Below, one piece after another: positions 15,135 through 39,292 of a DNA stretch of 64,000 nt. Source of the stretch: Patescibacteria group bacterium (GTDB lineage Bacteria > Patescibacteriota > Minisyncoccia > UBA6257 > UBA9933); the NCBI GenBank assembly GCA_038065955.1, contig JBBTPY010000006.1, forward strand, positions 7,626 through 71,625, written 5' to 3'. Both the position numbers and the translations under genes were made by a program. Under the pieces are notes generated by a model. That model saw only the letters and a list, made by a program, of their open reading frames with translations, was not told the origin of the DNA and made no database searches. Numbering within the stretch: the stretch's first letter is position 1; every line of letters begins with the position of its first letter.

Positions 15135-15224
15135 TGGCGGAGGGTAGAGGATTTGAACCTCTGAGGGGATTTCTCCCCAAGCGCATTTCGAGTGCGCCGC
15201 ACTAGACCACTATGCGAACCCTCC
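15135..15224 (-). tRNA. tRNA-Ser (anticodon CGA) with long variable arm; CCA encoded
   Basis: Minus-strand reverse complement folds as cloverleaf. Acceptor GGAGGGT/ACCCTCC; anticodon stem GCGCA/TGCGC with loop CUCGAAA; long variable arm; T-arm GGTTCAAAT. Confidence 0.8.
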
Positions 15225-15232
15225 ATGCCCTA

Positions 15233-15303
15233 TGCCCTCGCGAGGAATCGAACCTCGATTTTAGGTTTAGGAAACCCACGTCCTATCCGTTGAACGACAA
15301 GGG
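15233..15303 (-). tRNA. tRNA-Arg (anticodon CCT); CCA not encoded
   Basis: Reverse complement GCCCTTG...CGAGGGCA; anticodon stem TGGGT/ACCTA with loop TTCCTAA; T-arm GGTTCGATTCC. Confidence 0.75.
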
Positions 15304-15384
15304 CGGTTTGATTTAGTTTATCTTTTTTATTTGAAAGTTGCAATTAAATTAAATTTTAAGTAATATTTTCAATATATTTTAAGC

Positions 15385-15455
15385 GGGCCTATAGTAAAAT
15401 GGTATTACATCTCCATGGCATGGAGAAGGTAGGAGTTCGATTCTCCTTAGGTCCA
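15385..15455 (+). tRNA. tRNA-Ala (anticodon GGC) with G3:U70; CCA not encoded
   Basis: Acceptor GGGCCTA/TAGGTCC with G3-U70 wobble (Ala identity element); D stem GTAA/TTAC; anticodon stem TCTCC/GGAGA with loop ATGGCAT; T-arm AGGAGTTCGATTCTCCT. Confidence 0.75.
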
Positions 15456-15650
15456 CTGTATGATACTTCGAGCCGGAGAATTGCTGATTAAGCTCGAAGA
15501 TTACTGACAATTTTGCGGTTCCAAATCCTTTATTTCGCGTGTACGGAATTCCCTCAGATTTATATTGATTTTCCATTTTCATATTTATTCTCATTTTTCG
15601 GCTACTTTTGCATACAATCGGATATAGCCGTTATATACGATTTTGGGCTG

Positions 15651-15677
15651 TTGACTTGTTCCACAATCTACTATAAT
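15651..15677 (+). promoter_or_regulatory. Candidate sigma70-type promoter (TTGACT, 15-nt spacer, TATAAT) upstream of the first island gene
   Basis: TTGACT at 15651-15656 and TATAAT at 15672-15677, ~50 nt upstream of the ATG at 15729. Confidence 0.3.
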
Positions 15678-15728
15678 CTAATATAGTTAAAGTATAAGAT
15701 AATTTACTTGTAGTGAGTTTATCGAACT

Positions 15729-16118
15729 ATGGCAAAAATCCATATCAAAAAGTTTTTACCCGACGGCGCTATTAACCCGGAGTATTTAGAGGAGTTGAAG
15801 CGTCGGACACTTATTCAAAGCACGGCTTCATCTTTGCGGCTTTCTGGCATTAAGATTACCGAGAAAGAAGTTGAACTAATTGTTAATCGCCCGGCGTCCA
15901 ATTCTGTTTTCCATAAAAACATAGAAAAGATTTTATCGCCAAAACAGCTGGCGGTTTTGAAGTATCTGCAAAGCGTGGAAGAAGCCGCTCCCGGCGAAAT
16001 TGCTAAAAAAGCAAAAGTTGCCAGACCCACAGTCAATCAAGCGTTAGACAAGCTTTTGCGCCTCAAAAAAGTCGAACGGATCGGCCTTGGAAGAAGTACG
16101 AGATATAGGAAATTATGA
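15729..16118 (+). CDS. Small winged-helix DNA-binding protein; N-terminal motif shared with ORF 27172
   Basis: C-terminal wHTH ('IAKKAKVARPTVNQALDKLLRLKKVERIG'). N-terminal 'RRTLIQSTASSLRLSGIKITEKEVELIV' is paralogous to 'RKTLIESTGASVRLSGLKITNEEVEKII' at 27172. Confidence 0.45.
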   Translation: MAKIHIKKFLPDGAINPEYLEELKRRTLIQSTASSLRLSGIKITEKEVELIVNRPASNSVFHKNIEKILSPKQLAVLKYLQSVEEAAPGEIAKKAKVARPTVNQALDKLLRLKKVERIGLGRSTRYRKL

Positions 16119-16220
16119 AAATAAAGGATTTACCAAAATCGGATAGGCCGCGGGAGAAGCTCGAGAAATATGGACCCGAGCGGCTTTCGAATTCATGGCT
16201 TTTGATGATAAATTAAAACT

Positions 16221-18113
16221 ATGAATAATAACGGCGTACATCGCAAAAAGGATTCGGCGCGGATTGTGTGGGATTCAAAGCCACATCGCGCGCCGAATCC
16301 GAAAGATATTGAATTTCAAACAGCCGAGGTGGTGATTCCGAACCCAGAAACCGCCGGGCAGTTGCCGATGTCTTTTCAGGATAGACTGCTGGGAGAGGAA
16401 GAACTAGACAAGCAAAAAATGAACCGCCTCATTTGGGGCGACAATCTGCTCGCGATGCAGGCGCTTTTGAATCAGGGGTACGAGGGCAAAATCAATCTCA
16501 TCTACATTGATCCGCCGTTTGATTCTAAAGCGGACTATTCGCATAAAATAAAGCTCGGCGAAACCGAATTTACCAAAGAGCCGAGCGTGATTGAGCGGCT
16601 TGCCTACAAAGACACTTGGGCCGGCGGCACGGATTCTTATCTTGATATGCTTTACCCACGCCTGCAACTAATGAAGCGGCTCCTGTCAGACAACGGATCG
16701 ATTTATGTGCATATTGGTGGTCATGTTAATGCTTACGTTAGACTATTGTTAGACGAAGTATTTGGCACAGACAACCTGATTAACGAGATCACGTGGTTTT
16801 ATAAAAATAAACTACAATCAAAACTATCTCAATTTTTCCCGAAAGATACCGAAAGTGTATTCGTTTTTGCAAAAAAATATGGCGATCATCAATTTCATCA
16901 TCAATATATTAAATTAGATGAGCCACGCAAACAAAATAAGATAAAATGGGATCCAGTCCACAAGAAGACTGTTACCGTAAAGGACGAAGCGGGCAATGTA
17001 GTTTATTATCAATCTGATCAAAAATTGATTGGCCAAATGTGGGAAATACCACGCGTCAATTCTATGGCAAAAGAAGACACGGGATATGATACACAAAAAC
17101 CACATGAGCTCATGGAAAGAATAATTAAAGCCGGTTCATCCGAGGGAGATTTAGTGGCAGATTTCTTTTGTGGGTCTGGTACCACACTTGCTCTTGCAGA
17201 AAAACTCAACCGCCGATGGATCGGGTGCGAATTGGGAAAAGTCGGCATACAAGTCACGCGGGGGCGGATGGTGGAGATGAAAAGCAAACCATTTCTGATT
17301 GAAAATATCGGCAATTATCAGCGCGAGATGATTTATCTGGGTGGCGCACGGATTTACGAGATGCAGAGAATTATTTTGAAACTCTACGGCGCGGAGCCGA
17401 TGGACGGGCGTAAAGATTTAGGCGTGAGAAAAACGGAGGATGGAACGCTGGAACTGGTCTATTGCGGCTATCCCGATAGGGCAGTTGCGGCGCATAAGGT
17501 GGAAGATTTGGCGAAGGAAGCGCAAATGCTTGATGGCACGGGCTACAAGAGACTCGTGATTCTGGCGTGGGATTATGAATACAATTATGACGAGCTTTTA
17601 CAAACGCGGATAAAAGCCGCGGGCAAGGATATAAAAACGGAAATTGTCAGCCGTCAGATTCCGCCGGACATTTACGAATACTTAAAACAAACAAAATCAG
17701 AAGAAGATATTGAGCGGTTTTCGGACAAAGTGAAGTTTTTAGAAAAACCGTATTTGAAGCTAAAAAAACCGAAAGTGAAAGACAATTCGGTTACTATCGG
17801 CATTGAAAAGTATGTGCTATATGATTTCCCGCTTGGAAGTGGCAAAAAAGCGGGCGAAGACCACCAACAACTGATGCGACTTGTCAAAGACAATTTCGCC
17901 ATTTTGATTGACTACTGGGCAGTGGATTGGGACTACGACGAATTGACCTTCAAAAGCCATTGGCAGGATTTGCGCGGGAATGGCCGAAAAGCAAAAGTAG
18001 TAGCAACAGAGAAAGAACATTCGTATGAAAAATCCGGGAAGCACACAATTGCCGTGCGCGTGGTGGACATTTTTGGCAACGATGCCACGGCTACGATTGA
18101 TATAAAGACATAA
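16221..18113 (+). CDS. mod: Beta-class N6-adenine/N4-cytosine DNA methyltransferase, Type III Mod-like
   Basis: Motif IV 'IYIDPPF' lies N-terminal to motif I 'DFFCGSGTTLALAEKL' (beta-class order). Middle region is variable (TRD-like). Immediately upstream of a Res-like helicase-nuclease. Confidence 0.8.
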   Translation: MNNNGVHRKKDSARIVWDSKPHRAPNPKDIEFQTAEVVIPNPETAGQLPMSFQDRLLGEEELDKQKMNRLIWGDNLLAMQALLNQGYEGKINLIYIDPPFDSKADYSHKIKLGETEFTKEPSVIERLAYKDTWAGGTDSYLDMLYPRLQLMKRLLSDNGSIYVHIGGHVNAYVRLLLDEVFGTDNLINEITWFYKNKLQSKLSQFFPKDTESVFVFAKKYGDHQFHHQYIKLDEPRKQNKIKWDPVHKKTVTVKDEAGNVVYYQSDQKLIGQMWEIPRVNSMAKEDTGYDTQKPHELMERIIKAGSSEGDLVADFFCGSGTTLALAEKLNRRWIGCELGKVGIQVTRGRMVEMKSKPFLIENIGNYQREMIYLGGARIYEMQRIILKLYGAEPMDGRKDLGVRKTEDGTLELVYCGYPDRAVAAHKVEDLAKEAQMLDGTGYKRLVILAWDYEYNYDELLQTRIKAAGKDIKTEIVSRQIPPDIYEYLKQTKSEEDIERFSDKVKFLEKPYLKLKKPKVKDNSVTIGIEKYVLYDFPLGSGKKAGEDHQQLMRLVKDNFAILIDYWAVDWDYDELTFKSHWQDLRGNGRKAKVVATEKEHSYEKSGKHTIAVRVVDIFGNDATATIDIKT

Positions 18114-18117: not shown

Positions 18118-20961
18118 ATGACAAAGAAAATCCACAATAATTTACTCAATGAATTACCGCTTGCCGCGATACTTGCACCGGAAGTAAAGGCGTGGGCGGA
18201 TCAGGGCTGGCAAGGCGTAACGCAGACGACCTACGAACTTTTGGCGTATTGGTTTAATCGTGGGGAAGAAGACGGCGATGGATTTCATAAATGTCAGCGC
18301 CGTGCGGTGGAGACGATTATTTACTGCCATGAAGTTTTGGGTATTGAAACACTCAAACAGGCATTTGAAAGATTTGCTCCCGAAGCGTTGGCGGCAAGCG
18401 CGGCTCTTTCGGAAGAAGTGCAGAATTTACCTTTTGCGAAATATTGTCTCAAAATGGCAACCGGTACCGGCAAGACATGGGTTTTGGCCGCACTTTTAGT
18501 ATGGCAATATTTCAACGCCCTGAACGGCGAGCGGCCGGGAAAATATTCCTCACATTTTTTGCTCGTTGCGCCTGGACATGAGGTATTGAATCGTTTGCTG
18601 GATATGTTTTTAGGAAAGCATAACCCGAAAACCGGCAATCGCGACAAATCAAAATCGGATTTTGAGCGACCGCTTTTTATACCAGAGGGCGAGCGGTTTC
18701 GCAATCGTTTTAATCTGCAAGTTTTGGAACCGGCGGACATCCGACCAAATCTTACGCCGCCGGACGAGCCGTTTGTGTATATCACTAACTGGCAGCAGTT
18801 TCGTTTGAACGAATCCAGCAACTTATGGGATCAACTAACTGGCGCTGATGTGGAGGAACAGCCGCGCGGCGAAATCATTGCCGATTTTCTTTCCGAGTAT
18901 TCAGATTTAATTATTTTCAATGACGAGGCGCACCATGTCCATGGCGCTAAAACCGCTAAAGGCGAGGAGTTGGTGTGGCGGAAATTCTTAACCGCTCTGT
19001 ATAACCGAATGGCGGAAAAGCGCGGCGATGAGAAAGGCGTATTTTTACAAATTGATTTTTCCGCTACGCCATTTTATGGCAGCGCGGAGAAAAAAGAGTA
19101 CTTCCCCCATATCGTCTATGATTTTGATTTAGTGGAAGCGATGCGGGCGATGCTCGTGAAGCAGATATTTTTGGAAGAACGGCAGGGAATGATGGGCGAG
19201 AAAATGGATGACCTTGATGTGCGCGCCGAACGAGCCGAAGCCGACGACGAACACCGGCGCGGGCAAGTTATCGGTGTTTCCGTGAGCCAGAAACTGCTTT
19301 TAGACATCGGCAGAAAAAAGATGGAGCAGATCGCCGTGGAATTTCGCGAAAAAGGACTGGATAAAAAACCGGTGCTTTTCGTGCTTGCGGAAAATACCGA
19401 GGTGGCTGATTTGGTTGCCGAGCATTTGGCAAATTTGACCGACGAGCGTGGCAGAAACTATCGCAATCAAGTTCTTGTAATTCACTCTGATAAAAAAGGC
19501 GAAATGAGCGACAAGGATTGGGAAAAGTATCGCCAGCAGTTGGAAACGCTAGATGAGCCAGAGGAAATAAACCAGATTCGCGTCGTGGTAAGCGTCTTGA
19601 TGTTGCGCGAGGGTTTTGACACTCAAAATGTGGCGGTGGTAGTGGTTTTGCGGAGCGCGAAAGCTGATCTCCTTTTGGAACAGATTGTCGGGCGCGGCGT
19701 ACGACTGATGTTCCCGGAATACAAATACCCAGAACTTGCGGACTTGAAGCGAGAGGCGCGGGAAGATGTGATGCGAAAGCGCGCGCCGAAAAACTCTTTG
19801 GACTTTTTGTTTGTTGTTGAACACCCAAAATTTCGAGGTTTCTATGAAGAATTACAGAAACAGGGATATGCGATTGGTATTGGCGATTCGTCGAGCACGG
19901 AAACAACCGGCGATTTGATTTTGTCGGAAGCCACACCCGAAAGAATTAAAAAATACGATCTCTCTTGGCCGATACAGGTATATGAACAGTCGCCGAAGTT
20001 TGATTTTTCCGCCATAGGCATTTCGGGGTTACCGAAGTATTCCATTCCGTTTGAGATGCTCAAAAAACAACTTTCCCAAATCTCCATCACAGAAACACAC
20101 GCCGAGACGGGTGGAAAAATAAAAACATGGAAACTGGACAATCAGTATTTTGATTACGCCCATTTCTTGCGCCAAGCAACAATCGCGGTGGCTTCCGAGC
20201 GCGGCACGAACACACTCACTAGCAAGATGGCAGATATTACCGGAATTATTGACGAGTATGTAAGTAATTATTTATTCGGCGGCGAGATTGACTTTCAGAA
20301 GGCCGAAAATTATACGGTCCTCAATTACGCACCGCTTTTTGATTTTGTTGTCGGGAGCGTCAAGCGAGTATTGTTGGATGGCTTGGGTAAAATTCAATAC
20401 GAAGTGAAAGCGGGAAAAGTTGGCAGGTTGAGCGATATAAAAAAGATTTATGTGCGGCAATCGCTATCTGTGCCGGTGGAGCGGTGTATTTATCCGCTCG
20501 CCGGATATTCGCGGCGAGGTGAAGGATTTGAGAAAAAGTTTATGGAGGAAACTTTGGATAAATCCACCGAGGTGGAAGCGTTTGGAAAAATTCAACAGAG
20601 AAAACACCTGCTCAACATTTCCTATCGGGACAAAGACGGAATCAAGCGCGACTATTTCCCCGACTTCGTTATCAAGATAAAAGACAAAATGTATATCGTG
20701 GAAACGAAAGCCGAGGACGAAATACAGAAGGCGGAAGGCAACGAAAAGAATTTGATCGTTTTGAAGGCGCGCGCGGCCGTGAGTTGGTGCAAAACAGCAA
20801 GTCAAATATCGCTCCCGAACCAGCCGCAGGAATGGGAGTATTTTATGTTATCTGAAAAGACATTCAATGAAAACCGGCAATTGGGCTTTGATGCGCTGGC
20901 CGACTTGGGTAGATTGGATTTGGAGCGGCTTTTGACGAGTGAAGCGGGGAAGCTGTTTTGA
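18118..20961 (+). CDS. res: Type III restriction enzyme Res subunit (SF2 helicase plus PD-(D/E)xK nuclease)
   Basis: Walker A 'MATGTGKTWV'; DEAH box 'IIFNDEAHHV'; downstream helicase motifs; C-terminal 'DFVIKIKDKMYIVETKAEDE' nuclease core. Confidence 0.8.
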   Translation: MTKKIHNNLLNELPLAAILAPEVKAWADQGWQGVTQTTYELLAYWFNRGEEDGDGFHKCQRRAVETIIYCHEVLGIETLKQAFERFAPEALAASAALSEEVQNLPFAKYCLKMATGTGKTWVLAALLVWQYFNALNGERPGKYSSHFLLVAPGHEVLNRLLDMFLGKHNPKTGNRDKSKSDFERPLFIPEGERFRNRFNLQVLEPADIRPNLTPPDEPFVYITNWQQFRLNESSNLWDQLTGADVEEQPRGEIIADFLSEYSDLIIFNDEAHHVHGAKTAKGEELVWRKFLTALYNRMAEKRGDEKGVFLQIDFSATPFYGSAEKKEYFPHIVYDFDLVEAMRAMLVKQIFLEERQGMMGEKMDDLDVRAERAEADDEHRRGQVIGVSVSQKLLLDIGRKKMEQIAVEFREKGLDKKPVLFVLAENTEVADLVAEHLANLTDERGRNYRNQVLVIHSDKKGEMSDKDWEKYRQQLETLDEPEEINQIRVVVSVLMLREGFDTQNVAVVVVLRSAKADLLLEQIVGRGVRLMFPEYKYPELADLKREAREDVMRKRAPKNSLDFLFVVEHPKFRGFYEELQKQGYAIGIGDSSSTETTGDLILSEATPERIKKYDLSWPIQVYEQSPKFDFSAIGISGLPKYSIPFEMLKKQLSQISITETHAETGGKIKTWKLDNQYFDYAHFLRQATIAVASERGTNTLTSKMADITGIIDEYVSNYLFGGEIDFQKAENYTVLNYAPLFDFVVGSVKRVLLDGLGKIQYEVKAGKVGRLSDIKKIYVRQSLSVPVERCIYPLAGYSRRGEGFEKKFMEETLDKSTEVEAFGKIQQRKHLLNISYRDKDGIKRDYFPDFVIKIKDKMYIVETKAEDEIQKAEGNEKNLIVLKARAAVSWCKTASQISLPNQPQEWEYFMLSEKTFNENRQLGFDALADLGRLDLERLLTSEAGKLF

Positions 20962-20965: not shown

Positions 20966-21085
20966 ATGATAGAAAAACAAACAAAAGTCCGCGACTACGA
21001 AAAACAAATTGACCAGCTCGTCTATAAACTCTACGGCCTCACCCCGGAGGAGATTAAAATTGTTGAGAATAATAATAAAAAATGA
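20966..21085 (+). CDS. 39-aa ORF ending in a 'LYGLTxEEIKIVE'-type motif (remnant of an RM-methylase C-terminal tail, or a small coupled peptide)
   Basis: ATG 5 nt after the res stop. Its stop overlaps the next ATG (ATGA). Sequence 'MIEKQTKVRDYEKQIDQLVYKLYGLTPEEIKIVENNNKK'. Confidence 0.3.
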   Translation: MIEKQTKVRDYEKQIDQLVYKLYGLTPEEIKIVENNNKK

Positions 21086-21801
21086 CCACCGAGGATTACA
21101 ATTTATATAAATTACTTATCGAAGCGATAATAGCAATCGTCTCTCTTTTAGTTGGTGGAGTAATGGGTATTTATGTAGAAAATAGGTGGAAAATAGTGAA
21201 AAAAGTTAAAAGCCGCATAAATCAGAAAGGTTATGTAAATCAAGCAGTCGAAGTTATTGATAGTCCGCATTCTTCTCCTCAAAATGCTGGTGGCGATGCA
21301 CTTAGACAAGAAGGCGCGGGGGTTCTTGCATCCATTAAAGATAGCCCAGGTGCCTCAATAAACTTTGCGAATAATGAACCCAGGGTCGGGAGCCCCGATG
21401 AAGCTCTTGGGACAAGTTCTTTGCCCACGGAAAGTGAGCGTATTTCTTTGAGTTCGAATCAGGCGCATATTTATCAGAAAGTTCAAGAAATTCTCCAAAA
21501 ACTGAATAAAAACACTACTTTTGCAGCCAGATACCAAAATGCAATCCGTCATTTGAACAGTAATAATGCACAGGTCTGTGCTTCTGAATATCACAGCGCC
21601 TTTCTCGATGTCGTTCCAATTATTTTAGAGCGTTCCACATATGGCAGTTCTGCTCCTACAAAAGATAATTTGGACGCTCTGAACAAATCTTTTGAACAAA
21701 TCCGAGTATTTATGAACACCTCTTCTCACGACGATGCAACGCTGGGAAATACTCTAAAAAGCTTTGAGGATGCCATTCTAATTTTACTTGGTTATCTATG
21801 A
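21082..21801 (+). CDS. Membrane-anchored hypothetical protein (239 aa) in the RM-linked operon
   Basis: N-terminal TM helix, Pro/Ser-rich linker, alpha-helical C-terminal domain. Start and stop codons overlap the flanking genes. Confidence 0.4.
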   Translation: MTTEDYNLYKLLIEAIIAIVSLLVGGVMGIYVENRWKIVKKVKSRINQKGYVNQAVEVIDSPHSSPQNAGGDALRQEGAGVLASIKDSPGASINFANNEPRVGSPDEALGTSSLPTESERISLSSNQAHIYQKVQEILQKLNKNTTFAARYQNAIRHLNSNNAQVCASEYHSAFLDVVPIILERSTYGSSAPTKDNLDALNKSFEQIRVFMNTSSHDDATLGNTLKSFEDAILILLGYL

Positions 21802-24839: not shown

Positions 24840-24843
24840 TTTT

Positions 24844-30034: not shown

Positions 30035-30103
30035 CCCAAGCGGCTCTTTCGAAAGATAGAGCCGCTTTTTCCAATCCACGCTAAAAACCGCTATAATACA
30101 ACT

Positions 30104-31495: not shown

Positions 31496-31862
31496 ATTGA
31501 GCATTAGTGACGCATTGCTTGATGCTCTTCAAGAAAATCTTGCGGCTATAATTCTAGCCGGTAGTTTTCCAGATTCATTCAAAGAAGGGTGGAGCGATGT
31601 TGATCTGTTGATTGTAGTCCATAAAATGGATCTTGATACAAAATTAAAATTAACCCATGTGATTGTAAAGCTGGAACATAACACAAAGACACACCACGGC
31701 ATAAATGTAATAACTGAAGAAGAATTTTTAACTCCAAAATCCCCAGAAACTTTACTTGAGGGTAAAACACTTCAGGCTCTTATTGACTTAAAAAAATATC
31801 CTGAAAGAGTTATTTACATTCACAAAACGATTAATCCCGAAAAGGTCTATTCTCCATGTTGA
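31467..31862 (+). CDS. Minimal nucleotidyltransferase (Pol-beta superfamily, MNT-like)
   Basis: 'AGSFPDSFKEGWSDVDLLIVV' fits the G[SG]...D.D nucleotidyltransferase motif. Confidence 0.55.
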   Translation: MNGFDSNKIKLSISDALLDALQENLAAIILAGSFPDSFKEGWSDVDLLIVVHKMDLDTKLKLTHVIVKLEHNTKTHHGINVITEEEFLTPKSPETLLEGKTLQALIDLKKYPERVIYIHKTINPEKVYSPC

Positions 31863-31959
31863 CCACATAAAAGCATGGGCAAATGGTGGGGAGACTATTT
31901 TAGAAAATTTACAAACGCTTTGTTCAAAGTGTAATATTGGTAAAAGCGATTTAGAATAA
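31858..31959 (+). pseudogene. Remnant of an HNH endonuclease (C-terminal half only)
   Basis: In frame +1 relative to the nucleotidyltransferase. Translates 'VDHIKAWANGGETILENLQTLCSKCNIGKSDLE*', the second half of an HNH motif (DH..., N..., CxxCN). Upstream CxxC and first His are absent. Confidence 0.5.
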
Positions 31960-31961
31960 TT

Positions 31962-32285
31962 ATGGAAACTAAAAATGTAAAATTCGTTGTTTTTGTTCCT
32001 CTCTCTCACGCTGATGCTGTGCGCCATGCTCTCGGCGAGGCCGGAGCGGGTAAAATCGGAAATTATGATTTCTGCTCGTTTTCTTCTCGTGGCACAGGTC
32101 GTTTTCGTGGAAATGAAAAAGCGAATCCTGTAATTGGTAAAGCGGGGAAATATGAAGCAGTCGAGGAAGAAAAAATTGAGGCGATTGTGCCGCGAGAAAT
32201 TTTGAAAGAGGTTATTGAAAAAGTAAAAAGCGTTCATCCATACGAGGAAGTCGCTTTTGATATTTATCCGTTGGAAACAATATGA
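31962..32285 (+). CDS. Small PII/CutA-like (ferredoxin-like fold) protein, function unknown
   Basis: 107 aa; 'GAGKIGNY', 'SRGTGRFRG' and C-terminal 'HPYEEVAFDIYPLE' resemble CutA/PII-like families. Weak assignment. Confidence 0.3.
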   Translation: METKNVKFVVFVPLSHADAVRHALGEAGAGKIGNYDFCSFSSRGTGRFRGNEKANPVIGKAGKYEAVEEEKIEAIVPREILKEVIEKVKSVHPYEEVAFDIYPLETI

Positions 32286-32911
32286 AAATTACAAAAAATA
32301 AAATTCAAGTACTATTAGTCCATGGTGGAATGACCTTCAAAAATGAGAAGGATTATTTACACTACTTAAAAACTAAAAAAGTAACGACAACGAAAAAAGT
32401 TTCTTGGACAGGAGGTTATTTAGAGAAAAGTTTAGGCAAAAGGTTTGAAATAATCTCGCCAAGAATGCCTTTGCAGGATTTTGCGAAGTACAGAGATTGG
32501 AAGATATTTTTTGAGAGATACTTATCACTTATCAAAAATAAATACATTTTGATTGGTTCGTCTTTAGGCGGAGTTTTCCTTGCAAAATATCTTTCCGAAA
32601 ATAAACTTCGCAAAAAGGCATTGTCGGTATATTTGGTTTGTCCACCTTTTGACAATACATTGCCAGGTGAAGATTTGGTCGGTGGCTTCACGCTCGGCAA
32701 TAATCTGTCGTTGATTGAGAAGAACTGCAAAAATCTCCATTTGTTATTTTCAAACGATGACGATGTTGTGCCCGCCGCTCATGCCGATAAATACAAGCGA
32801 AAATTGAAAAATGCCCATGTTGTGATTTACAAGAGCAAAGGCGGGCATTTCAACATCGCCAAATTTCCTGAAATAGTTAAGATGATTTTTGCAGATATTA
32901 AAAGAAACTAG
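32282..32911 (+). CDS. Alpha/beta-fold serine hydrolase (YdeN/RBBP9-like)
   Basis: 'VLLVHGG' N-terminal strand; nucleophile elbow 'IGSSLGG'; late 'GGHFN' His region. Confidence 0.5.
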   Translation: MKITKNKIQVLLVHGGMTFKNEKDYLHYLKTKKVTTTKKVSWTGGYLEKSLGKRFEIISPRMPLQDFAKYRDWKIFFERYLSLIKNKYILIGSSLGGVFLAKYLSENKLRKKALSVYLVCPPFDNTLPGEDLVGGFTLGNNLSLIEKNCKNLHLLFSNDDDVVPAAHADKYKRKLKNAHVVIYKSKGGHFNIAKFPEIVKMIFADIKRN

Positions 32912-33010
32912 CCGCCAATTTTTTCAAAAAAGAAAGCCGAAGCCCGTGCGGATTCCTCCCCAAACCCCTCCTCCGCGCGGGCGAGTCCGAATTCCGCACC
33001 CCGCCACCAT
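32909..33010. repeat. Partial copy (R orientation) of the GC-rich intergenic repeat family; begins at the stop codon of the upstream gene
   Basis: 'tagccgccaatttt...gcggattcctccccaaacccctcctccgcgcgggcg' aligns with 36676-36760. Confidence 0.6.
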
Positions 33011-33340
33011 TCCCCCAGAAAAATGAGGCGGGGTGCGGTCAGAGTTTCTTCTCGAAAAAAGTTCGAGCAAATGCTAAAATAACACCACATTAGACGATTT
33101 CTTTCGCCCTCGCCCCTCGCTTCGCTCGGGGCTCGGGCTTCGGCGGGCAGAAAATAAAGGTAATTCCACGGCTTTTTGAAGTCAACAAAAAGCCGTTGGT
33201 CAAAAATTCGGCGGTTCGAGCCGATTTTTTTGAGAAAATTTTTCATCTCTGAAAAATTATCCTCCAAAGCGAAATTTTTGGCTTGGTTGGCTTCAATTAT
33301 CCAGTTCCGGACGAGTTCGAGCCAATGATTGCCTTTTCGC

Positions 33341-34591
33341 TCAAAATCGCTTTTTTTCCTCAATATCTTTTTTCCCCGACATCAGATCGTTTTTCTTTGG
33401 CTGAAACTCCGGCAGTTCTAAATCGCCTTCAAGGTAAGCGTCCATCAGGCGATTTATTTTTGTCTTAATTTTTTCTAATTCTGTTTTAAGATTTTGAGCG
33501 AAAAGGTCAGATGAGTGGCGGGATTCTTTATTCTCATTTTCCAGTTTTGTCAAAAACTTTTCCCGCCACTCATCGGGCAAAGAAACTTTTTGACAAAGAT
33601 TTTTCACTTGTTCAGTTAAAACTTCTTCCCGCAAAAAGCGATTTTCAGTACACGAAATAGTTTTGCTCTTGTGGGTGCAACGATAATAAATAAATTTCAA
33701 ACCACTTTTCTTGATGTGTCGCTCGGCGGTTATGGCATATCCACATACCCCACAAGTAGCAAAACCTAAAAACTGAAAATTCTTTGGTCCTCGCTTTTTG
33801 CGGGGCTTCCCATTCTGAACAAGTGCATTTTGAATTTGGTCAAAAAGTTTCTTTGCAATCATTGGCTTATGCGAACCTTGATGCACCTCGCCACGATATT
33901 GAAAGTGTCCGTAGTAAAAAGGATTTTTCAAAATATGTTCAATACTGGCGAGGTGCAAAGGTTTACCTGTTTTGCCAACCAAGCCAAGAGAAAACATTTT
34001 GCGTTGAATAGCCGTGAGTGTGTATTGCCCCGAAGCAAAAGCCCCTAACGCTTCTTTTACTTTGCCAAAAGTTTTTCTATCCGGCTCAATCGTCCGCAAA
34101 CGAGGTTCGTTGAAATATCCTAAAGGGGCTTTTGCGGAAAGTTCACCACGGCGTATTTTTTGGCGAATACCACGCAAAATGTTTTCTCTTAAATTGTCGG
34201 TGTAATACTTTGCTTGTCCGAAGGCGACACTCAACATAAATTTTCCTTGCGGTGTCGCCTCGAACCAGAAAGTAGGGAATTTTAGCGCAACAATCTTTTG
34301 CGTATCCACCAAATAAATTACTCTGCCACCGTCTATGCTATTTCTCGCTAAACGGTCTGGATTCCACGCTAAAATTCCCTGTGCAGTGCCTTTTTCAATT
34401 TCGCCAAGCATTTCGTTGAAAACTACTCTACCCGGCTCTTTGGCGGTCTTGCTCTCGTAAAATTCTTTTTCAACGAAAAGATTATTTTGCTTGGCGAATT
34501 CCCGAAGCTCCGTCAATTGTGCCTCAATACTTAAAACTTGGCGTTCTTCGTCTTCACTTGATTTTCTACAATAGATAAAATATTTGATCAT
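33341..34591 (-). CDS. Large serine recombinase (resolvase/invertase catalytic domain, recombinase domain, zinc ribbon)
   Basis: N-terminal 'YCRKSSEDEERQVLSIEAQ' contains the catalytic Ser. C-terminal 'CGVCGYAITAERHIKKSGLKFIYYRCTHK' is the zinc ribbon of large serine recombinases. Confidence 0.85.
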   Translation of the reverse strand: MIKYFIYCRKSSEDEERQVLSIEAQLTELREFAKQNNLFVEKEFYESKTAKEPGRVVFNEMLGEIEKGTAQGILAWNPDRLARNSIDGGRVIYLVDTQKIVALKFPTFWFEATPQGKFMLSVAFGQAKYYTDNLRENILRGIRQKIRRGELSAKAPLGYFNEPRLRTIEPDRKTFGKVKEALGAFASGQYTLTAIQRKMFSLGLVGKTGKPLHLASIEHILKNPFYYGHFQYRGEVHQGSHKPMIAKKLFDQIQNALVQNGKPRKKRGPKNFQFLGFATCGVCGYAITAERHIKKSGLKFIYYRCTHKSKTISCTENRFLREEVLTEQVKNLCQKVSLPDEWREKFLTKLENENKESRHSSDLFAQNLKTELEKIKTKINRLMDAYLEGDLELPEFQPKKNDLMSGKKDIEEKKRF

Positions 34592-34799
34592 AGCTTCGGG
34601 AATTAAATTGATAAAGGCATTGCACTTACACCGACAATTTCTAAAAATCTCTCCTCATCGGCTCTTGCGCCTTTGGCGCAATCCAAACTTTGTTTGGGAA
34701 CCGCCGACTTTCGGCGGGAATTCTTTTGGCGGAATTCAAAACCCCCTGGAATTTCTTGGCGGAAACCAATGCCGAGGGGCGAAGCCCCGAGGCAACTTC

Positions 34800-35020
34800 T
34801 TCGGCAAATCAAATTTGGTGGTGTTTGTTTAAAAAAGTCAGAACCCATTTTGCAGAAAATCCCAACGAATGAAACGGAAACAATGCGGACTCGGCAGGGC
34901 AAACTATTTTTCTGGGGTTTTGGATTTGCCCTGCCTCGGCTGATTTCCCGCCCGCAGGAGGGGTCTGGGGAGGAATGCGGGCGGGTTTCGGACTGGGGGT
35001 TTTCGGAAATTCGGCGGCTA
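34800..35020. repeat. Left copy (L orientation) of a ~200-bp inverted repeat flanking the XRE-NDT-HD cassette
   Basis: Reverse complement of 34837-35020 aligns nearly base-for-base with 36676-36870. Contains a perfect 10-bp hairpin stem cccgcccgca/tgcgggcggg. Confidence 0.8.
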
Positions 35021-35101
35021 TAAAATAATTGAATAATTCTCTCATATTTGTTATTATAATACTGTCAGTTAAAACAAGCAACAGTATTATGTTATCAATA
35101 T

Positions 35102-35305
35102 ATGGAAACTAATTTATTAGGACAGAAAATAAAGAAGCTACGGACAAAACTTGGTCTTTCTCAAGACGATTTTGCTCGCAAGGCGGATGTTCCCTACACA
35201 ACGCTTACAAAGGTCGAAACAGGCGTTATAAAAAAACCTTCGGTTTTTATGGTGAGCAAAATCGCTAAAGCGCTTGATGTTAATATTGAAGAATTAATAA
35301 AATAA
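35102..35305 (+). CDS. XRE-family helix-turn-helix transcriptional regulator
   Basis: 'LGLSQDDFARKADVPYTTLTKVETG' HTH_3 pattern; 67 aa. Confidence 0.6.
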   Translation: METNLLGQKIKKLRTKLGLSQDDFARKADVPYTTLTKVETGVIKKPSVFMVSKIAKALDVNIEELIK

Positions 35306-35310
35306 ATATT

Positions 35311-35697
35311 ATGAAAACAGTAGTACTTTGCGGCAGTCGCCGTTTCAAACCGGAAATGAGAGAATTTGGCAAAAAGCTAAAAGAGCTTGGTGTCGTTGTG
35401 TTTGAACCTTATTTACATTCCGGTCAAGACGAATGGGCGAAACTGTCGGACGACTATAAAAAATTTGTTGCTCTCGGACTAACCCATGATCATTTTTACA
35501 AAATACAAATAGCTGATGTGGTTTTTATTTTTAATAAAGACGGTTACACTGGGAATAGTACGACTTTGGAAATCGGTTATGCGGTAGCGACAGGAAAACC
35601 AATTTATGCGTTAACAAGTGACGAAGAATTATGCCGCCATGTTTTATTTAGAGAGATAATTTCTTCACCCAAAGAACTTGTTAAAAAATTGAAATAA
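35311..35697 (+). CDS. Nucleoside 2-deoxyribosyltransferase-like (Rcl/DNPH1-type Rossmann) protein
   Basis: 'VVLCGSRRF' N-terminal strand and 'GYTGNSTTLEIGYAVATGKPIYAL' match the NDT-like 'G.S.GT..E.G.A.A.GKP' signature. Confidence 0.45.
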   Translation: MKTVVLCGSRRFKPEMREFGKKLKELGVVVFEPYLHSGQDEWAKLSDDYKKFVALGLTHDHFYKIQIADVVFIFNKDGYTGNSTTLEIGYAVATGKPIYALTSDEELCRHVLFREIISSPKELVKKLK

Positions 35698-35700
35698 ATT

Positions 35701-36678
35701 ATGAAATACACAGATAGAGTATATGGAAATTTTGAAATTACAGAACCAGTAATTTTGGAATTGATAAATTCCTCAACTTTTCAAAGATTAAAGGAAATAG
35801 ATCAAGCTGGATATTTCGAACCACATTTCCCAGGCACTGCACATTCGCGTTTTGAACATTCAATCGGTGACTATTTACTTTTGAAAATGTATGAGGCACC
35901 AATTGAAGAACAAATTGCTGGTCTTATTCATGATGTTTCTCACTCGGCATTTTCTCATTGTATAGATTATGTCTTAGATGCTGGCTCTGAAAAAGAACAT
36001 AATCATCAAGATAATGTTTTTGATGATTATGTTAGAAAATCAGAAATACCAGAAATTCTTAAAAAATATAATCTCGATTTGGATTATATCCTTGACGATA
36101 AAAATTTTCCTCTTAAAGAAAACGATTTGCCAGATTTATGTTCAGATAGAATAGATTATTCATTAAGAACAGCTACTGTTTTTAAGGAAATAGAAAACGG
36201 AAAATTTTTTATTTATAATCTCACAGCAAAAGACGGAAGGTGGATTTTTAAAGATTTTGAAAGTGCAAAAAAATATGCAGACTTATTTTTGAAACTCAAC
36301 ACTAACTATTATGCGGGATTACCTTCCGCTGTTATGTTCCGAACGGTTGGAGATTATTTGCGATATGCACTTTCAAAAGAATATATTTCTGAAACCGATT
36401 TATACACAACTGATAAAATTGTTCTTTCAAAAATAGAATTTCATATCACCGACGACTCAAAATTGAAATTGCTTTTTGAAAGAATGAATAATAAAATCGG
36501 TTTCAGAAATGACCCAGTTAATTATGACGGAAAAGTATTTTGTAAATCACGAGTGGTTGATCCTCTTTGTTGGCATAATGGGGAAATAAAAAGAGTTTCA
36601 GAAATAGAGCCGAGTTGGTCTGATATAATTACGCGGGAATCAAAACCAAAAGAATATTTTTTAAAATTTGATAGATAG
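35701..36678 (+). CDS. HD-superfamily metal-dependent phosphohydrolase
   Basis: 'HSRFEHSIGDYLL' (His) and 'LIHDVSHSAFSH' (HD) motifs. Confidence 0.7.
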   Translation: MKYTDRVYGNFEITEPVILELINSSTFQRLKEIDQAGYFEPHFPGTAHSRFEHSIGDYLLLKMYEAPIEEQIAGLIHDVSHSAFSHCIDYVLDAGSEKEHNHQDNVFDDYVRKSEIPEILKKYNLDLDYILDDKNFPLKENDLPDLCSDRIDYSLRTATVFKEIENGKFFIYNLTAKDGRWIFKDFESAKKYADLFLKLNTNYYAGLPSAVMFRTVGDYLRYALSKEYISETDLYTTDKIVLSKIEFHITDDSKLKLLFERMNNKIGFRNDPVNYDGKVFCKSRVVDPLCWHNGEIKRVSEIEPSWSDIITRESKPKEYFLKFDR

Positions 36679-36995
36679 CCGCCGAATTTCCGAAAACCCC
36701 CAGTCCGAAACCCGCCCGCATTCCTCCCCAGACCCCTCCTGCGGGCGGGAAATCAGCCGAGGCAGGGCGAATCCATATCCCCAGTCAAATGTTTCGCCCT
36801 GCCGAGTCCGCATTAGTTTTCAGGGTTCTCCGCAAAATGGGTTCTAACTTTTTCCAACAAACACCAAAATCAAGCCCCTTGATTTTGGGATATTCTAAAC
36901 TTTGCGCGAAATCATTTTGAGGGAAACTAGCCCGCCTCCGCTTCGCTCCGGCGGAACGCTCGGGCATTTCGGCGAAAAATTTTTGCGACTGACAA
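36676..36995. repeat. Right copy (R orientation) of the inverted repeat; starts at the HD-gene stop codon and extends ~320 bp
   Basis: 'tagccgccgaatttccgaaaacccccagtccgaaacccgcccgcattcctccccagacccctcctgcgggcggg...' is the reverse complement of 34837-35020. Its distal part (36900-36995) is mirrored at 39042-39130. Confidence 0.8.
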
Positions 36996-37069
36996 AATAG
37001 GTATTACTTCTATCTTATCATAATATCTAAACTTTGGATATTGATTTCTTGGATATATCTTGTTAATAT

Positions 37070-37291
37070 ATGGTTAAGTCAATCCAAACAAAGGAATATG
37101 CCTATTTTATTGAGCGGTTACGGAAGGCTCGACTAAGGGCTGGTCTGACACAGGCGCAGGTCGCGAAAAAGATAGGTCGCCCCCAATCGCATATATCAAA
37201 TGTTGAATCTGGACAGCAAATGGTTGATGTAGTCGAGCTTCAACGATTTGCAAAGATATACGGAAAAGATATTAACTTTTTCCTAAAATGA
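37070..37291 (+). CDS. XRE-family HTH regulator
   Basis: 'AGLTQAQVAKKIGRPQSHISNVESGQ' HTH_3 pattern; 73 aa. Confidence 0.6.
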   Translation: MVKSIQTKEYAYFIERLRKARLRAGLTQAQVAKKIGRPQSHISNVESGQQMVDVVELQRFAKIYGKDINFFLK

Positions 37292-37620
37292 AATCTGCCA
37301 AACTTATTTCAGTTTTACTTTCCTTTGTGATTATTGTTAGTGTATTCGGTGTTTTTGCTGCTCCCAACACAACAGAGGCGTTTGTCCAAAAATATGAATA
37401 TTCAGAATATGATCCGCCTGGTGTTTTCTCTGGAGTTTGGCATGGACTTCTTGCGCCATACTCGCTTGTTGCCCGTTGGTTTATGGACGACGGAGCGATG
37501 TACGCAGTACCGAATACTGGTTGGTTTTATGACGCAGGATTTTTGATTGGTATAGTCGGCTCGATTCCTATTGGTTGGGCTGCTGCTATAATTTCCACAA
37601 TTGGACATATCTTGTCTTAA
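37288..37620 (+). CDS. Small membrane protein, unknown
   Basis: N-terminal TM or signal segment plus C-terminal hydrophobic segment; start overlaps the upstream stop. Confidence 0.3.
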   Translation: MKSAKLISVLLSFVIIVSVFGVFAAPNTTEAFVQKYEYSEYDPPGVFSGVWHGLLAPYSLVARWFMDDGAMYAVPNTGWFYDAGFLIGIVGSIPIGWAAAIISTIGHILS

Positions 37621-37632
37621 TTTCTAAAACTT

Positions 37633-38115
37633 ATGAAAATTAAACTTATAATTGGAATTCTCGTCGTGCTGGTTTTAATCTTTGGTTGGATAGCTTTTTC
37701 TCCAGCTACTCAAGAATCGTCAGTCAAGAAAGCACATTTTGCTACAAAATTATCAGCATCAGGAAGTATCACCTGTACTTATCCTCAAATACTGCATGCC
37801 AGCTATCAATCCGGAGAAATAACGCATGAATTACCGAAGCCGGAGACAAACCCTATCATAATGACTTTTAGCGATATTGATTCTGAAGTTGCAAAAGTTA
37901 AGTTCATTGATGCAACGCAATCCATTTCAGAAGTTCCACTCGTGAAAGTTATTGATACAGTAGAAAAGTTGATGTTCCTCGAAGGAAACGGTGAGCCCTA
38001 TATAACTGTTCATACAATTTATAAGGAAGATGGCGTTGCAACCTATGAAAAATCAATGTCGCTATTAGGTATCCCAGTAGGTACGGTGGGAATGGGTAGT
38101 TGTGTCGATTATTGA
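37633..38115 (+). CDS. Secreted hypothetical protein
   Basis: Signal-peptide-like N-terminus 'MKIKLIIGILVVLVLIFGWIAFS'; no recognisable motif. Confidence 0.3.
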   Translation: MKIKLIIGILVVLVLIFGWIAFSPATQESSVKKAHFATKLSASGSITCTYPQILHASYQSGEITHELPKPETNPIIMTFSDIDSEVAKVKFIDATQSISEVPLVKVIDTVEKLMFLEGNGEPYITVHTIYKEDGVATYEKSMSLLGIPVGTVGMGSCVDY

Positions 38116-38180
38116 AGGATAAACCCACTACGTAGCTTTAACTTGTTCTTCATCGTCATATTTAGTATTATATAAGTGAT

Positions 38181-38672
38181 ATGTCCTTACACCGAAAAAA
38201 GTACCAAAATGCTGTTTTGTACTTATGCCGGAAGCTAAAAGGCGAGGTACGCGGCAAGAAAAAATTAGCGAAATTGCTTTATTTCGCGGATTTTGATTTG
38301 TACGAAAAAAGTCAGAAATCAATAACTGGCGATGTTTACTGTGCGCTCCCAATGGGGCCGGTTCCGGCAGCTTTGGAAGAAATCACAGCTGAAATGACAA
38401 AAAAGAAAATGCTTGGCGTTGAGCACATCGAAGAACGAGAGGGATACAATCCTACTGAAGTATATAAGTGTCTCATCGAACCCGATCTTTCTGTTTTTGA
38501 TGACGAAGAAAAGAAAATGCTCGATCGGATTGTTGTCAAATATGGTCATCTCAATGGCAAACAATTAGAAGAATTATCTCACGCCGAAGCACCATACATC
38601 GGTACGGAGTTACGAAAAGAAATTCCATACGAACTGGCTTTTTATCGTGGTACAGATTTTAGTGAAATATGA
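38181..38672 (+). CDS. Panacea (DUF4065) domain antitoxin-like protein
   Basis: 'LAKLLYFADFDLYEKSQKSITGDVYCALPMGPVPAAL' matches the Panacea core and is paralogous to the 25636 C-terminal domain. Confidence 0.55.
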   Translation: MSLHRKKYQNAVLYLCRKLKGEVRGKKKLAKLLYFADFDLYEKSQKSITGDVYCALPMGPVPAALEEITAEMTKKKMLGVEHIEEREGYNPTEVYKCLIEPDLSVFDDEEKKMLDRIVVKYGHLNGKQLEELSHAEAPYIGTELRKEIPYELAFYRGTDFSEI

Positions 38673-39040
38673 TTCAGTTTCTGTACCACGACGGCATTCA
38701 GAAAGAAATCGCCGCCCTTGATGAGCGGCGATTTCGTACTATACGCAGTGGTCTGTCTGCATTTGAGAGACTGTGTGAGGTGCAATTTAATCCGACAAAT
38801 CCGCGACAAATCATTGCGCCGGCTAAAATACACCGCATTACGCAGAATGATATTTGGACACTCTGGAAAACTGAACTCGTTGTACCTAATTCGGGTTTAC
38901 GCCCAAATCAATGGCCGCGAATGTGGTTTGTGGTGAAGGGCGCAATTATTGCTTTTTTGTGCATATCCTCTCATGTTGATAATTACAACGATGAGGATAT
39001 GAATCGTTTAGCTTTGTCGCGGGTGTCGGATTTCTTCTGA
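38669..39040 (+). CDS. Putative toxin partner of the Panacea protein (family unrecognised)
   Basis: Start overlaps the Panacea stop (ATGA coupling); 123 aa; C-terminal hydrophobic stretch. Confidence 0.3.
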   Translation: MIQFLYHDGIQKEIAALDERRFRTIRSGLSAFERLCEVQFNPTNPRQIIAPAKIHRITQNDIWTLWKTELVVPNSGLRPNQWPRMWFVVKGAIIAFLCISSHVDNYNDEDMNRLALSRVSDFF

Positions 39041-39041
39041 A

Positions 39042-39130
39042 ATGTCGCAAAAATTTTTCACCGAAATGCCCGAGCGTTCTGCTAGAGCGAAGTGGAGGCG
39101 GTTTAGTTCCTTTTTTGAATTTTTTAGGAG
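39042..39130. repeat. Partial L-orientation copy of the intergenic repeat family
   Basis: 'gtcgcaaaaatttttcaccgaaatgcccgagcgttctgctagagcgaagtggaggcgg' is ~90% identical to the reverse complement of 36921-36990. Confidence 0.7.
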
Positions 39131-39292
39131 GCGCGCAAAAGAAAATTGTAAGGGAAAATTTCTGCGAGGTTGTCGCCTGAGCGAAGCGGGAGCGTACGAT
39201 TTAGTCTCGCTTCACCACGCGCTCCGCGCGCGGCACATCAGTCGGGGTTCTACTGGAAGTAAGTCCGAATTTTTTGGTATAATGATTACCAT

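Follow-up and report, generated by a model that had tools for sequence, protein, structure and literature searches.

Among the described systems closest to the locus reported here are the staphylococcal cassette chromosome (SCC) elements, including SCCmec, in which tandem cassettes accumulate into composite defence-carrying islands at the 3' end of one housekeeping gene via the recombinases CcrA/CcrB (PMC11470126). Serine integrases have been reported not to target tRNA genes (PMC4383910). For Patescibacteria, horizontal transfer has been credited with up to 13% of the small genomes, and tRNA-adjacent defence islands have been reported in general terms, the islands being named without a recombinase or a tRNA (PMC12455944). 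Here, we analysed a stretch of 64,000 nt from contig JBBTPY010000006.1 of a Patescibacteria group bacterium (hereafter, the window; coordinates are window positions unless a comparison locus is named, and L-numbers denote comparison loci or contigs of relatives). An inserted block of 23,836 bp (15457–39292; hereafter, the island) extended from the 3' end of a tRNA-Ala(GGC) gene to the start codon of uppS. We consider it probable that this block is a composite, horizontally acquired island in a tRNA-Ala(GGC)/uppS hotspot, the right part of which was built by a family of recombinase and cassette elements. As a defence island next to a tRNA gene, the block is of an ordinary kind; its right 6.2 kb (33.1–39.3 kb) belongs to an element family that is common in Parcubacteria and the candidate phyla radiation (CPR).

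Genomic context and base composition of the island

In four relatives with the same tRNA trio and with uppS 69–82% identical to that of the window, the site was empty or nearly so. uppS started 2 nt after tRNA-Ala in L116, which had the closest uppS (82% identical) and the same downstream methyltransferase and TsaD genes, 2 nt after tRNA-Ala(GGC) in L010, 36 nt after tRNA-Ala in L117, where LeuRS and a lamin-tail-domain (LTD) protein were encoded upstream, and 108 nt after tRNA-Ala in the near-empty site of L013. The empty-site junction read GGTCCACC-GG/GA-ATG(uppS), with GGTCCACC-GG-ATG in L116. One gene of 1.1 kb occupied the same site in L011, and a different insert of 8.6 kb was found in L114/L115, in which both flanks were the same as in the window (RpoB 90%, protease 79% and uppS 78% identical). 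Encoded in this insert were an R.Pab1 endonuclease and two methyltransferases, and it also contained end modules and the remnant of a recombinase gene; the arrangement in L114 was tRNA, cassette, recombinase remnant, cassette and uppS. Because the site was empty or differently filled among relatives, it represents an insertion hotspot and not conserved synteny. The polarity of this change rests on parsimony, since no relative closer than 82% uppS identity was among those available. Small open reading frames (ORFs) were also inserted within the trio in L011 (7973–8692, LAGLIDADG-like), L013 (1690–1950, a membrane ORF) and L010 (300–600), and therefore the tRNA cluster itself is variable too.

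The island also differed from the core genome in composition. Based on 2-kb subwindows and a leave-one-out core reference, the tetranucleotide distance to the core was larger in all 11 island subwindows (minimum 0.323) than in all 19 core subwindows (maximum 0.302; Mann-Whitney p = 3.8e-6). This signal had sharp edges at ~15 and ~39 kb and discriminated the island far better than GC did. The GC content was 42.0% in the block and 40.2% in the flanks, and averaged 44.2% at 16.2–30.0 kb compared with 39.9% and 40.4% in the flanks. Individual segments ranged from 35.6% to 51.6% (restriction-modification [RM] genes, 46.0%; AAA_18 gene, 51.6%; 30.1–32.9 kb, 35.6%; cassette 1, 36.4%).

An initial annotation made from the sequence alone had described a ~24-kb accessory block between a tRNA trio and uppS, with GC enrichment at about 16.2–30.0 kb and core genes resuming right after the last repeat copy, and had interpreted it as a tRNA-proximal genomic island of several horizontally acquired pieces. 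Both borders agreed with our results (trio at 15135–15456, uppS at 39293), and the tip of the last module at 39291 adjoined the uppS ATG. The GC enrichment was reproduced but was patchy, and GC and tetranucleotide analyses found the block both deviant and heterogeneous. As that annotation had anticipated, uppS lay directly beside the tRNAs in relatives (2–108 nt); gene content that is syntenic and compositionally uniform across the lineage, which would have spoken against an island, was not what we observed, as the content differed among relatives and the composition was deviant. The block is absent or different in relatives, deviates in composition and carries a recombinase, albeit a frameshifted one; its synteny and heterogeneous composition support the interpretation as an island of several acquired pieces.

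At the left border, tRNA-Ser(CGA) (15135–15224, − strand), tRNA-Arg(CCT) (15233–15304, − strand) and tRNA-Ala(GGC) (15385–15456, + strand), all detected by ARAGORN and Rfam, form the trio. The first two are host genes of this conserved trio, and the 3' end of the third is the left anchor of the island. The host genes further to the left encode type IV pilus proteins, LeuRS, the LTD protein and a trypsin-like protease, and at the right uppS (39293–39997, + strand; Prenyltransf, E 7e-60), the first core gene, is followed by genes for a methyltransferase, TsaD, FtsW, YceG and RpoB/C. An Rfam 15 scan of the window yielded only six tRNAs at the gathering threshold, and a tandem repeat search found short trivial arrays only.

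In Hainich groundwater metagenomes (CPR/Parcubacteria), contigs of a Liptonbacteria-like population from several independent assemblies were > 99% identical to the window and collinear with it, the block included, and two 150-kb Illumina contigs with 118–416x coverage spanned the entire block. Since independent 150-kb Illumina contigs cross the whole block, an assembly chimera was excluded. In the low-coverage sample ERZ1292636, contig L007 ended at position 15456, that is, at the tRNA-Ala 3' end, and contig L005 started at 38958, 335 nt before uppS. Such contig ends might mean that strains differ at the borders of the island, or they might simply result from the 5–6x coverage, which was too weak for them to be retained as a sign of island-free strains.

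A serine recombinase family associated with tRNA-Ala

Nearly all island ORFs are on the + strand, with the recombinase on the − strand. The recombinase gene recognised in the initial annotation encodes a large serine recombinase (LSR; 416-aa ORF, 33341–34591, − strand) with the Resolvase, Recombinase and Zn_ribbon_recom domains in the order characteristic of LSRs (PF00239, E 1.5e-19, residues 5–150; PF07508, E 1.6e-9, residues 180–257; PF13408, E 6.4e-8, residues 275–333). When compared by eye, its N-terminal R-x-S motif (Y7-C-R9-K-S11-S12), which would hold the catalytic serine, matched R8/S10 of Bxb1 (residues as given in PMC12884075). The best NCBIfam match was XisF (E 1.2e-28, below the cut-off), and the match to CcrB (E 6e-25) was far below the curated cut-off. 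The PDB matches were the SPbeta and A118 integrases, and the identity to phage serine integrases was ~26%.

In relatives, the recombinase is a single ORF of 507–555 aa, whereas a 2-nt difference splits the window gene into the 416-aa ORF and a 151-aa ORF (32908–33363, − strand) corresponding to the C-terminal extension that is in frame in relatives. A long-read homopolymer error was rejected because the same split of 416 + 151 aa was present in the 118–416x Illumina contigs. The sequence at the frameshift (33341–33365) reads ...GAG GAA AAA AAG CGA TTT TGA G. Speculatively, the conserved frame (..FERKGNHWLEL..) would be regained through a +1 slip at UUU_UGA (CGA UUU UGA G), and the gene might be either a pseudogene or recoded.

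A metagenome scan identified at least 498 relatives of the recombinase, the best 80 of which were 73–94% identical at the amino acid level. The host genes on those contigs were far more diverged from those of the window (protease 48%, LeuRS 52% and uppS 32%), indicating that the recombinase moves horizontally, because it is far more conserved than the host genes beside it. Nucleotide conservation with the family loci was limited to window positions ~33100–34860. Among 2.9 million viral contigs in IMG/VR, only 2 truncated matches to the recombinase family were detected, compared with at least 498 in metagenomes.

The family showed a consistent architecture at its tRNA side. Of the 47 loci whose downstream sequence was long enough, 41 had a tRNA gene within 600 nt downstream of the recombinase, nearly always convergent with it and 256–267 nt after residue 413. 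The abutting genes were tRNA-Ala(TGC) in 14 loci, tRNA-Ala(GGC) in 11, tRNA-Ala(CGC) in 10, tRNA-Val(CAC) in four and others in two (tRNA-Ala, 35/41), and they are host genes because the same trio occurs without the element. At the junction between the tRNA and the recombinase unit, ...GGTCCACCA is followed directly by WANNNGATTWG; unoccupied tRNA-Ala genes end in GGTCCAC(C), with no encoded CCA. The recombinase is enclosed by inverted arms, mostly 70–135 nt long, which were > 90% identical to each other in most loci and 100% identical in many. One arm lies ~107–230 nt 5' of the recombinase start, and the second overlaps the coding sequence at its 3' end.

On the side away from the tRNA, nearly all loci had a 45-nt end motif, which ends in ...AACAAACACCACCA, immediately beyond the upstream arm. 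Among the 29 loci in which the upstream sequence covered 3 kb or more, 16 had an inverted distal copy 2.1–8.4 kb away. The cargo between the two copies varied and included type II RM genes with MjaI, other methyltransferases, Ltp, TerB-like proteins, a pair of nucleoside 2-deoxyribosyltransferase (NDT) and HD-domain genes, and toxin-antitoxin genes. A divergent XRE helix-turn-helix (HTH) gene was present in 23 of 45 loci, usually opening the cargo. In L056, the distal tip adjoins the ATG of the core gene gpsA, as the window tip does at uppS, and the proximal side consists of protease, tRNA-Arg(CCT) and tRNA-Ala(GGC) genes; this locus shows canonical occupancy of the same chromosomal neighbourhood as the window. 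As in the window, the recombinase lay between two end modules in L030, L039, L074, L079, L092 and L097. An architecture of tandem cassettes was present in the window as well as in L114 and L030; at least 16 loci had inverted end modules.

Further loci illustrated the variation within the family. In L014 (2428–4135), a recombinase only 48% identical to that of the window lies in a perfect 116-nt inverted repeat, one arm of which begins within the last 7 nt of tRNA-Ala(TGC), so that the architecture holds in a more distant branch. L011 has a 4.6-kb cassette beside tRNA-Ala(TGC) that lacks a recombinase gene except for a stub at the far end (15057–15300), which consists of the first 12 codons (MIKYFIYCRKSS) and follows a hairpin and an end motif; it is thus a further decayed member of the family. 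L033, which may be an assembly palindrome, contains two recombinase copies in inverted orientation, each beside tRNA-Ala/tRNA-Ile, and tRNA-Ala genes adjoin both arms of the recombinase unit in L027 (222–1950).

Repeat modules and cassettes

In the window, the recombinase unit is bordered on its 3' side by repeat copy A (32926–33089, + strand), which comprises hairpin 1, hairpin 2 and a 46-nt end-like stretch, and the tip of which (CACCACA) adjoins the unit. Positions 32997–33088 of this copy were 95.7% identical to L074, where the arrangement is the same. The tRNA-side arm of the unit (33092–33215) is of the L072/L075 subtype and has no tRNA adjacent to it here, and the upstream arm (34698–34826), which ends in TGGTGG, is of the L024/L026 subtype. 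Cassette 1 follows, with repeat copy B as its left end module (34816–35021, − strand; the 45-nt end motif at 34816–34863 and two hairpins) and copy C, in inverted orientation relative to copy B, as its right end module (36675–36866, + strand; tip ...AACAAACACCA). Domain scans identified its genes, all on the + strand, as those for an XRE HTH protein (35102–35305), an NDT-like protein (35311–35697) and an HD-domain protein (35701–36678).

Cassette 2 begins with an end module of a variant type (36885–36989, − strand), which forms an inverted repeat with 39044–39108 and contains a 34-nt motif, CCGCCTCCGCTTCGCTCCGGCGGAACGCTCGGGC, that is identical in L014. Most of this module (36886–36965) was 95% identical, in inverted orientation, to the L114 module abutting uppS. 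The cargo (37070–39040, + strand) encodes an XRE HTH protein (37070–37291), a 110-aa membrane protein, a 160-aa protein and a Panacea antitoxin (38181–38672, + strand) followed by a 123-aa putative toxin. The right end of the cassette and of the island (39044–39291, + strand) consists of the inverted 65-nt arm (39044–39108) and a terminal module (39189–39291), which contains TGGTATAAT and the tip of which (...GATTACCAT) adjoins the uppS ATG. This terminal module was 73–88% identical to end modules located beside recombinases in L089, L094, L039, L041, L081, L034, L080 and L011. Within 39267–39292, TGGTATAAT ends 12 nt before the uppS ATG, and the same sequence is present in the homologous module of L011 (15424–15470); it may be an outward promoter feeding uppS after insertion. 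Perfect small palindromes were also observed between element tips (AAATCAAGCCCCTTGATTT at 36867–36885), and L011 has a 34-nt palindrome at both cassette ends (10797–10831 and 15471–15505) within a 39-nt direct repeat with CCAC. They may represent unoccupied sites of the recombinase, terminators or scars left by deletions.

The two hairpins were found in copies A, B and C and in homologues from ten other loci. Their loops were strongly conserved, with ATTCCTCCCCAGACCCCTCCT near-invariant in one and the core CCCCAG shared by the second. Stem complementarity was retained in 98.4% of cells, compared with 75% in shuffles and 34%–52% when the partners were slid, and both sides of the stem were altered in a compensatory manner in 10 of 18 pairs. 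The element had no Rfam 15 match at the gathering threshold, and nothing relevant was found at E <= 1 within 32800–39300. The module is thus a candidate for a new structured element. DNA palindromes can be homogenised by templated repair, and the number of independent stem variants was only three or four; for these two reasons, a role as RNA is not proven.

Cassette 1 has spread across lineages. Its HD protein had counterparts with 76–94% identity in Ryanbacteria, Zambryskibacteria, Pacebacteria, Blackburnbacteria and Uhrbacteria, which together accounted for more than 100 protein clusters. At the nucleotide level, window positions 35697–36735, which cover the HD gene and the first 57 nt of the end module, were 89% identical in Ryanbacteria and Zambryskibacteria contigs, where the HD gene product was 92% and the core gene products 30–41% identical to those of the window. 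The partner of the HD gene in those contigs is an Mrr-type nuclease (Mrr_cat; L121–L123, 4340–6449) instead of the NDT-like protein (35311–36678 with HD in the window), and the Ryanbacteria set is located between tRNA genes and flanked by a 39-nt inverted repeat. With either partner, the HD gene always lies behind an XRE regulator. The NDT-like/HD pair had no PADLOC match; from its gene content, HD with an exchangeable partner is a possible two-gene defence system.

Proposed assembly of the island and alternative explanations

Because the recombinase and repeats belong to a tRNA-Ala-associated family, the island is tied to the tRNA, and the tRNA-Ala(GGC) gene of the window is intact and in the canonical convergent orientation to the recombinase. 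Elements of this family have two parts, namely an LSR unit with its own inverted arms, normally placed directly against the ...CCACCA end of tRNA-Ala, and cargo cassettes, which begin with an XRE regulator and are bounded by inverted end modules with tips of the form ...CCAC(CA). We infer the crossover site, the mover of the cassettes and the order of events as follows. The LSR would recombine at a '...CCACCA' half, provided by a tRNA end or a cassette tip and joined to its own arm, and would thus place the unit and the cassettes at tRNA-Ala, where they could pile up in tandem, like SCC elements at rlmH. At the present locus, an older recombinase-plus-cassette element would have reached uppS by its distal tip, and one or several later events would have added the left 17.6 kb at the junction next to the tRNA. 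Such tandem accretion is the simplest interpretation, and L114 has its segments in a matching order. The left part was probably the later addition, at the tRNA side, because it ends at the recombinase in end module copy A. The island is probably no longer self-mobile, because the recombinase is frameshifted and its arms are of two subtypes.

Several observations weigh against this reconstruction. The two arms in the window are only ~56% identical to each other, the frameshifted recombinase is 17.6 kb from tRNA-Ala(GGC), and the long near-perfect arms around the recombinase in the family are unexplained by known LSR attachment (att) sites. The island subwindows were mutually closer in tetranucleotide composition (0.18–0.37) than they were to the core (0.32–0.54), despite widely differing GC contents; this fits poorly with many unrelated donors and hints at a common donor pool or a common constraint, such as restriction-site avoidance. 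In this population, all contigs were collinear, and neither a circular junction nor an empty-site read nor any other arrangement was seen. A duplicated tRNA 3' fragment, proposed initially as the mark of an att site, was absent, as no match of at least 12 nt to any of the three tRNAs occurred elsewhere in the window; only tips of the ...CCAC(CA) type recurred, not tRNA fragments. Serine recombinase sites share only a few bases, and the absence of such a repeat is therefore more in keeping with a serine than with a tyrosine recombinase. Finally, copy A, at the right end of the left 17.6 kb, is the only family signature in that part, and no recognisable end module was detected by hidden Markov model and BLAST searches after tRNA-Ala (15457–15728). 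A 9-mer shared in that interval, ATTTTGCGG, was considered as a trace of an end module and discarded as not significant.

The same lack of a family signature on the left lends some weight to a different explanation, namely that the tRNA–uppS gap is a generic defence hotspot filled by homologous recombination in the flanks or by unrelated elements, with the recombinase and cassettes as mere passengers. The wide range of GC contents across segments, a RadC fragment left as a truncation scar, the other small insertions within the trio in relatives (L011 and L013) and the wide distribution of the Type III Mod on its own are all compatible with it. However, the right boundary of the island is a family end module at the uppS ATG, the left segment ends in copy A, the tRNA-proximal segment of L114 lies between inverted family-like modules, and the tRNA at the left edge is the preferred target of the family. 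We therefore regard a generic hotspot as unlikely, although it is the strongest of the alternatives.

A less likely possibility, to which we give little credence, is that the inverted repeats are not the ends of mobile cassettes but invertible-DNA switches, similar to Hin or shufflon-like phase variation. The recombinase does lie between near-perfect inverted repeats, as hin does, the cassettes likewise lie between inverted repeats, and many contigs break inside the arms; such breaks, however, are expected at any repeat longer than the assembly k-mer. No flipped state was seen, and the tRNA was located at the 3' end of the recombinase in nearly every informative locus, with a 5'-side tRNA only in L027, where both sides had one. 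Contigs from the window population were all collinear, although assemblies report majority states only, and the promoter-like sequence and the regulator are inside the cassette, so that flipping would not switch it.

Two further explanations are highly improbable. An ancestral block lost independently in L116, L010, L117 and L013, for which the 82% ceiling on available uppS identity leaves some room, would require clean deletions in four relatives of different depth, leaving 2–108 nt, and conflicts with the deviant tetranucleotides of every island subwindow and with the 83–94% identity that the recombinase and cassette 1 retain between hosts sharing 30–55% identity in their core genes. A degraded prophage or a conjugative or mobilisable element, equally hard to credit, might be suggested by the phage-integrase-type LSR (~26% identical to phage integrases), the XRE regulators and the toxin-antitoxin genes, but the island ORFs that were scanned against Pfam, PHROGs or NCBIfam gave no structural or packaging (capsid, terminase or tail), relaxase or type IV secretion matches, and the recombinase family is nearly absent from viral contigs.

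Genes in the left part of the island

The left part of the island (15.5–32.9 kb) encodes mainly defence-related and accessory genes, all on the + strand. It starts with a winged-HTH regulator (15729–16118; Pfam MarR_2/DIP2311-like), followed by the RadC/UPF0758 N-terminal fragment of 33 codons (16119–16220; UPF0758_N, E 2.5e-9). This fragment is located directly 5' of a Type III mod gene, which suggests that the RM module replaced or cut a radC gene. The Type III mod (16221–18113; PADLOC MTase_III, E 1e-91) and res (18118–20961; ResIII helicase; REase_III, E 1.7e-19) genes form one operon, as expected of a Type III RM system, and thereby specify the RM system of the initial annotation. Res also had a weak Helicase_C match (E 0.001, below the cut-off) and a weak, sub-threshold match to a TnsA-like nuclease near its C-terminus. 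The Mod was 73–90% identical in other CPR lineages.

An operon of three genes (21082–25161; 239, 1013 and 105 aa) is a candidate defence module. The 1013-aa protein (21798–24839) matched PADLOC Dsr1 (E 1.6e-17) only over profile positions 737–1076 of 1227, which correspond to the C-terminal sensor region; no SIR2 match was found in Pfam, so that the N-terminal SIR2 effector of Dsr1 was not recognised. Besides Dsr1, the operon had no Pfam, NCBIfam or PHROG match, and the 239- and 105-aa ORFs belong to no known family. One possible identity of the operon is thus a Dsr-like system that relies on another effector.

Further downstream are an HTH-Panacea antitoxin gene (25636–26418; SocA_Panacea, E 8e-19; HTH_3, E 5e-15), an overlapping ORF for a putative toxin of 114 aa (26408–26752), assigned from its position, and a small zinc-ribbon ORF (26745–26978) identified by domain scan. 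The accessory gene run that follows (27172–32911; domain scans) includes a 119-aa ORF and encodes a DUF5667 protein (27589–29112; Pfam), for which an exact-protein look-up returned no record, an AAA_18 kinase-like protein (29300–30034; Pfam), a NUDIX-GT2 fusion (30104–31495), a putative nucleotidyltransferase (31467–31862) followed by a 107-aa ORF, and a Ser hydrolase (32282–32911). With regard to the remaining genes named in the initial annotation, the kinase corresponds to the AAA_18 gene, and the nucleotidyltransferase was recovered with a weak match (E 0.0018). The putative secreted proteins of that annotation are the DUF5667 protein and additional ORFs. Of its two toxin-antitoxin pairs, the antitoxin halves were substantiated by Panacea domains (E 8e-19 and 1.6e-22) with small downstream ORFs (25636–26752 and 38181–39040); the proposed toxins of 114 and 123 aa had no recognisable toxin family in PADLOC, NCBIfam and Pfam scans. 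Its HNH fragment was not found, the small zinc-ribbon ORF being present instead.

Significance and comparison with known systems

A cassette family with a serine recombinase at the 3' ends of tRNA-Ala genes is apparently undescribed; a limited literature search found no paper linking Parcubacteria with a serine recombinase, although a prior description is possible. The island provides a concrete vehicle for gene transfer in CPR bacteria, whose mobile elements are poorly known, as it combines a conserved LSR, present in hundreds of metagenomic copies, with small self-regulated defence cassettes that cross CPR classes at ~89% nucleotide identity. A natural serine family targeting tRNA genes would widen the known target range of these enzymes, and such recombinases could interest genome engineers because the tRNA 3' end is a nearly universal sequence. 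More tentatively, and with rather less confidence than in the origin of the island, the family might be a hitherto undescribed cassette-exchange platform of CPR bacteria, a serine counterpart of integrons and SCC anchored at the ...CCACCA of tRNA-Ala. Its recombinase would read tRNA ends and the tips that mimic them, and would thereby insert, excise or reshuffle self-regulated defence cassettes across CPR classes, and the covarying two-hairpin module with its CCCCAG loops would serve as the recombination or regulatory site, either as RNA or as a DNA cruciform.

The best NCBIfam match of the recombinase is to the XisF/SpoIVCA group, which has the same LSR domain set; however, those enzymes excise a single element from a coding gene in differentiation and have neither a tRNA target nor a cassette array. 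Tn4451 and Tn5397 (TnpX/TndX) are likewise small cargo elements with a single LSR, imperfect inverted ends and a 2-bp crossover (PMC5704250), but they differ in their low target specificity and lack of tRNA association, and a nested architecture of arms and end modules is undescribed for them. The concept of a recombinase beside an array of bounded, promoter-proximal cassettes, with boundaries formed by hairpins that conserve structure while varying in sequence, recalls integrons. IntI, in contrast, is a tyrosine recombinase that acts on folded single-stranded attC, whereas the present family has a serine recombinase, inverted pairs of end modules and cassettes with their own regulator and promoter region; as the sole recombinase of the island is of the serine family, the set of IntI, attI and attC that defines an integron is absent from it and the integron is an analogy only. 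The tRNA islands of Islander/TIGER also lie at a tRNA 3' end, leave the tRNA intact, carry variable cargo and mark hotspots among relatives, but they use tyrosine integrases, whereas the recombinase here is of the serine family and no displaced tRNA fragment forms a direct repeat.

SCC elements differ from the present family in gene and target, which here are one recombinase gene instead of a ccrAB pair and tRNA-Ala instead of rlmH. They also differ in architecture, as the family has long inverted arms (mostly 70–135 nt) that overlap the 3' coding end of the recombinase and 45–200-nt end modules with the two-hairpin element, and in host, the present elements being those of CPR bacteria, with cassettes known from sequence comparison. 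Nevertheless, both systems share an LSR, a fixed placement at the 3' end of a conserved gene, cassettes with short inverted or terminal boundaries and, as it appears, their tandem accumulation into composite islands with defence genes. By analogy, the machinery of the island therefore appears to be most like that of SCC elements in its mode of working.

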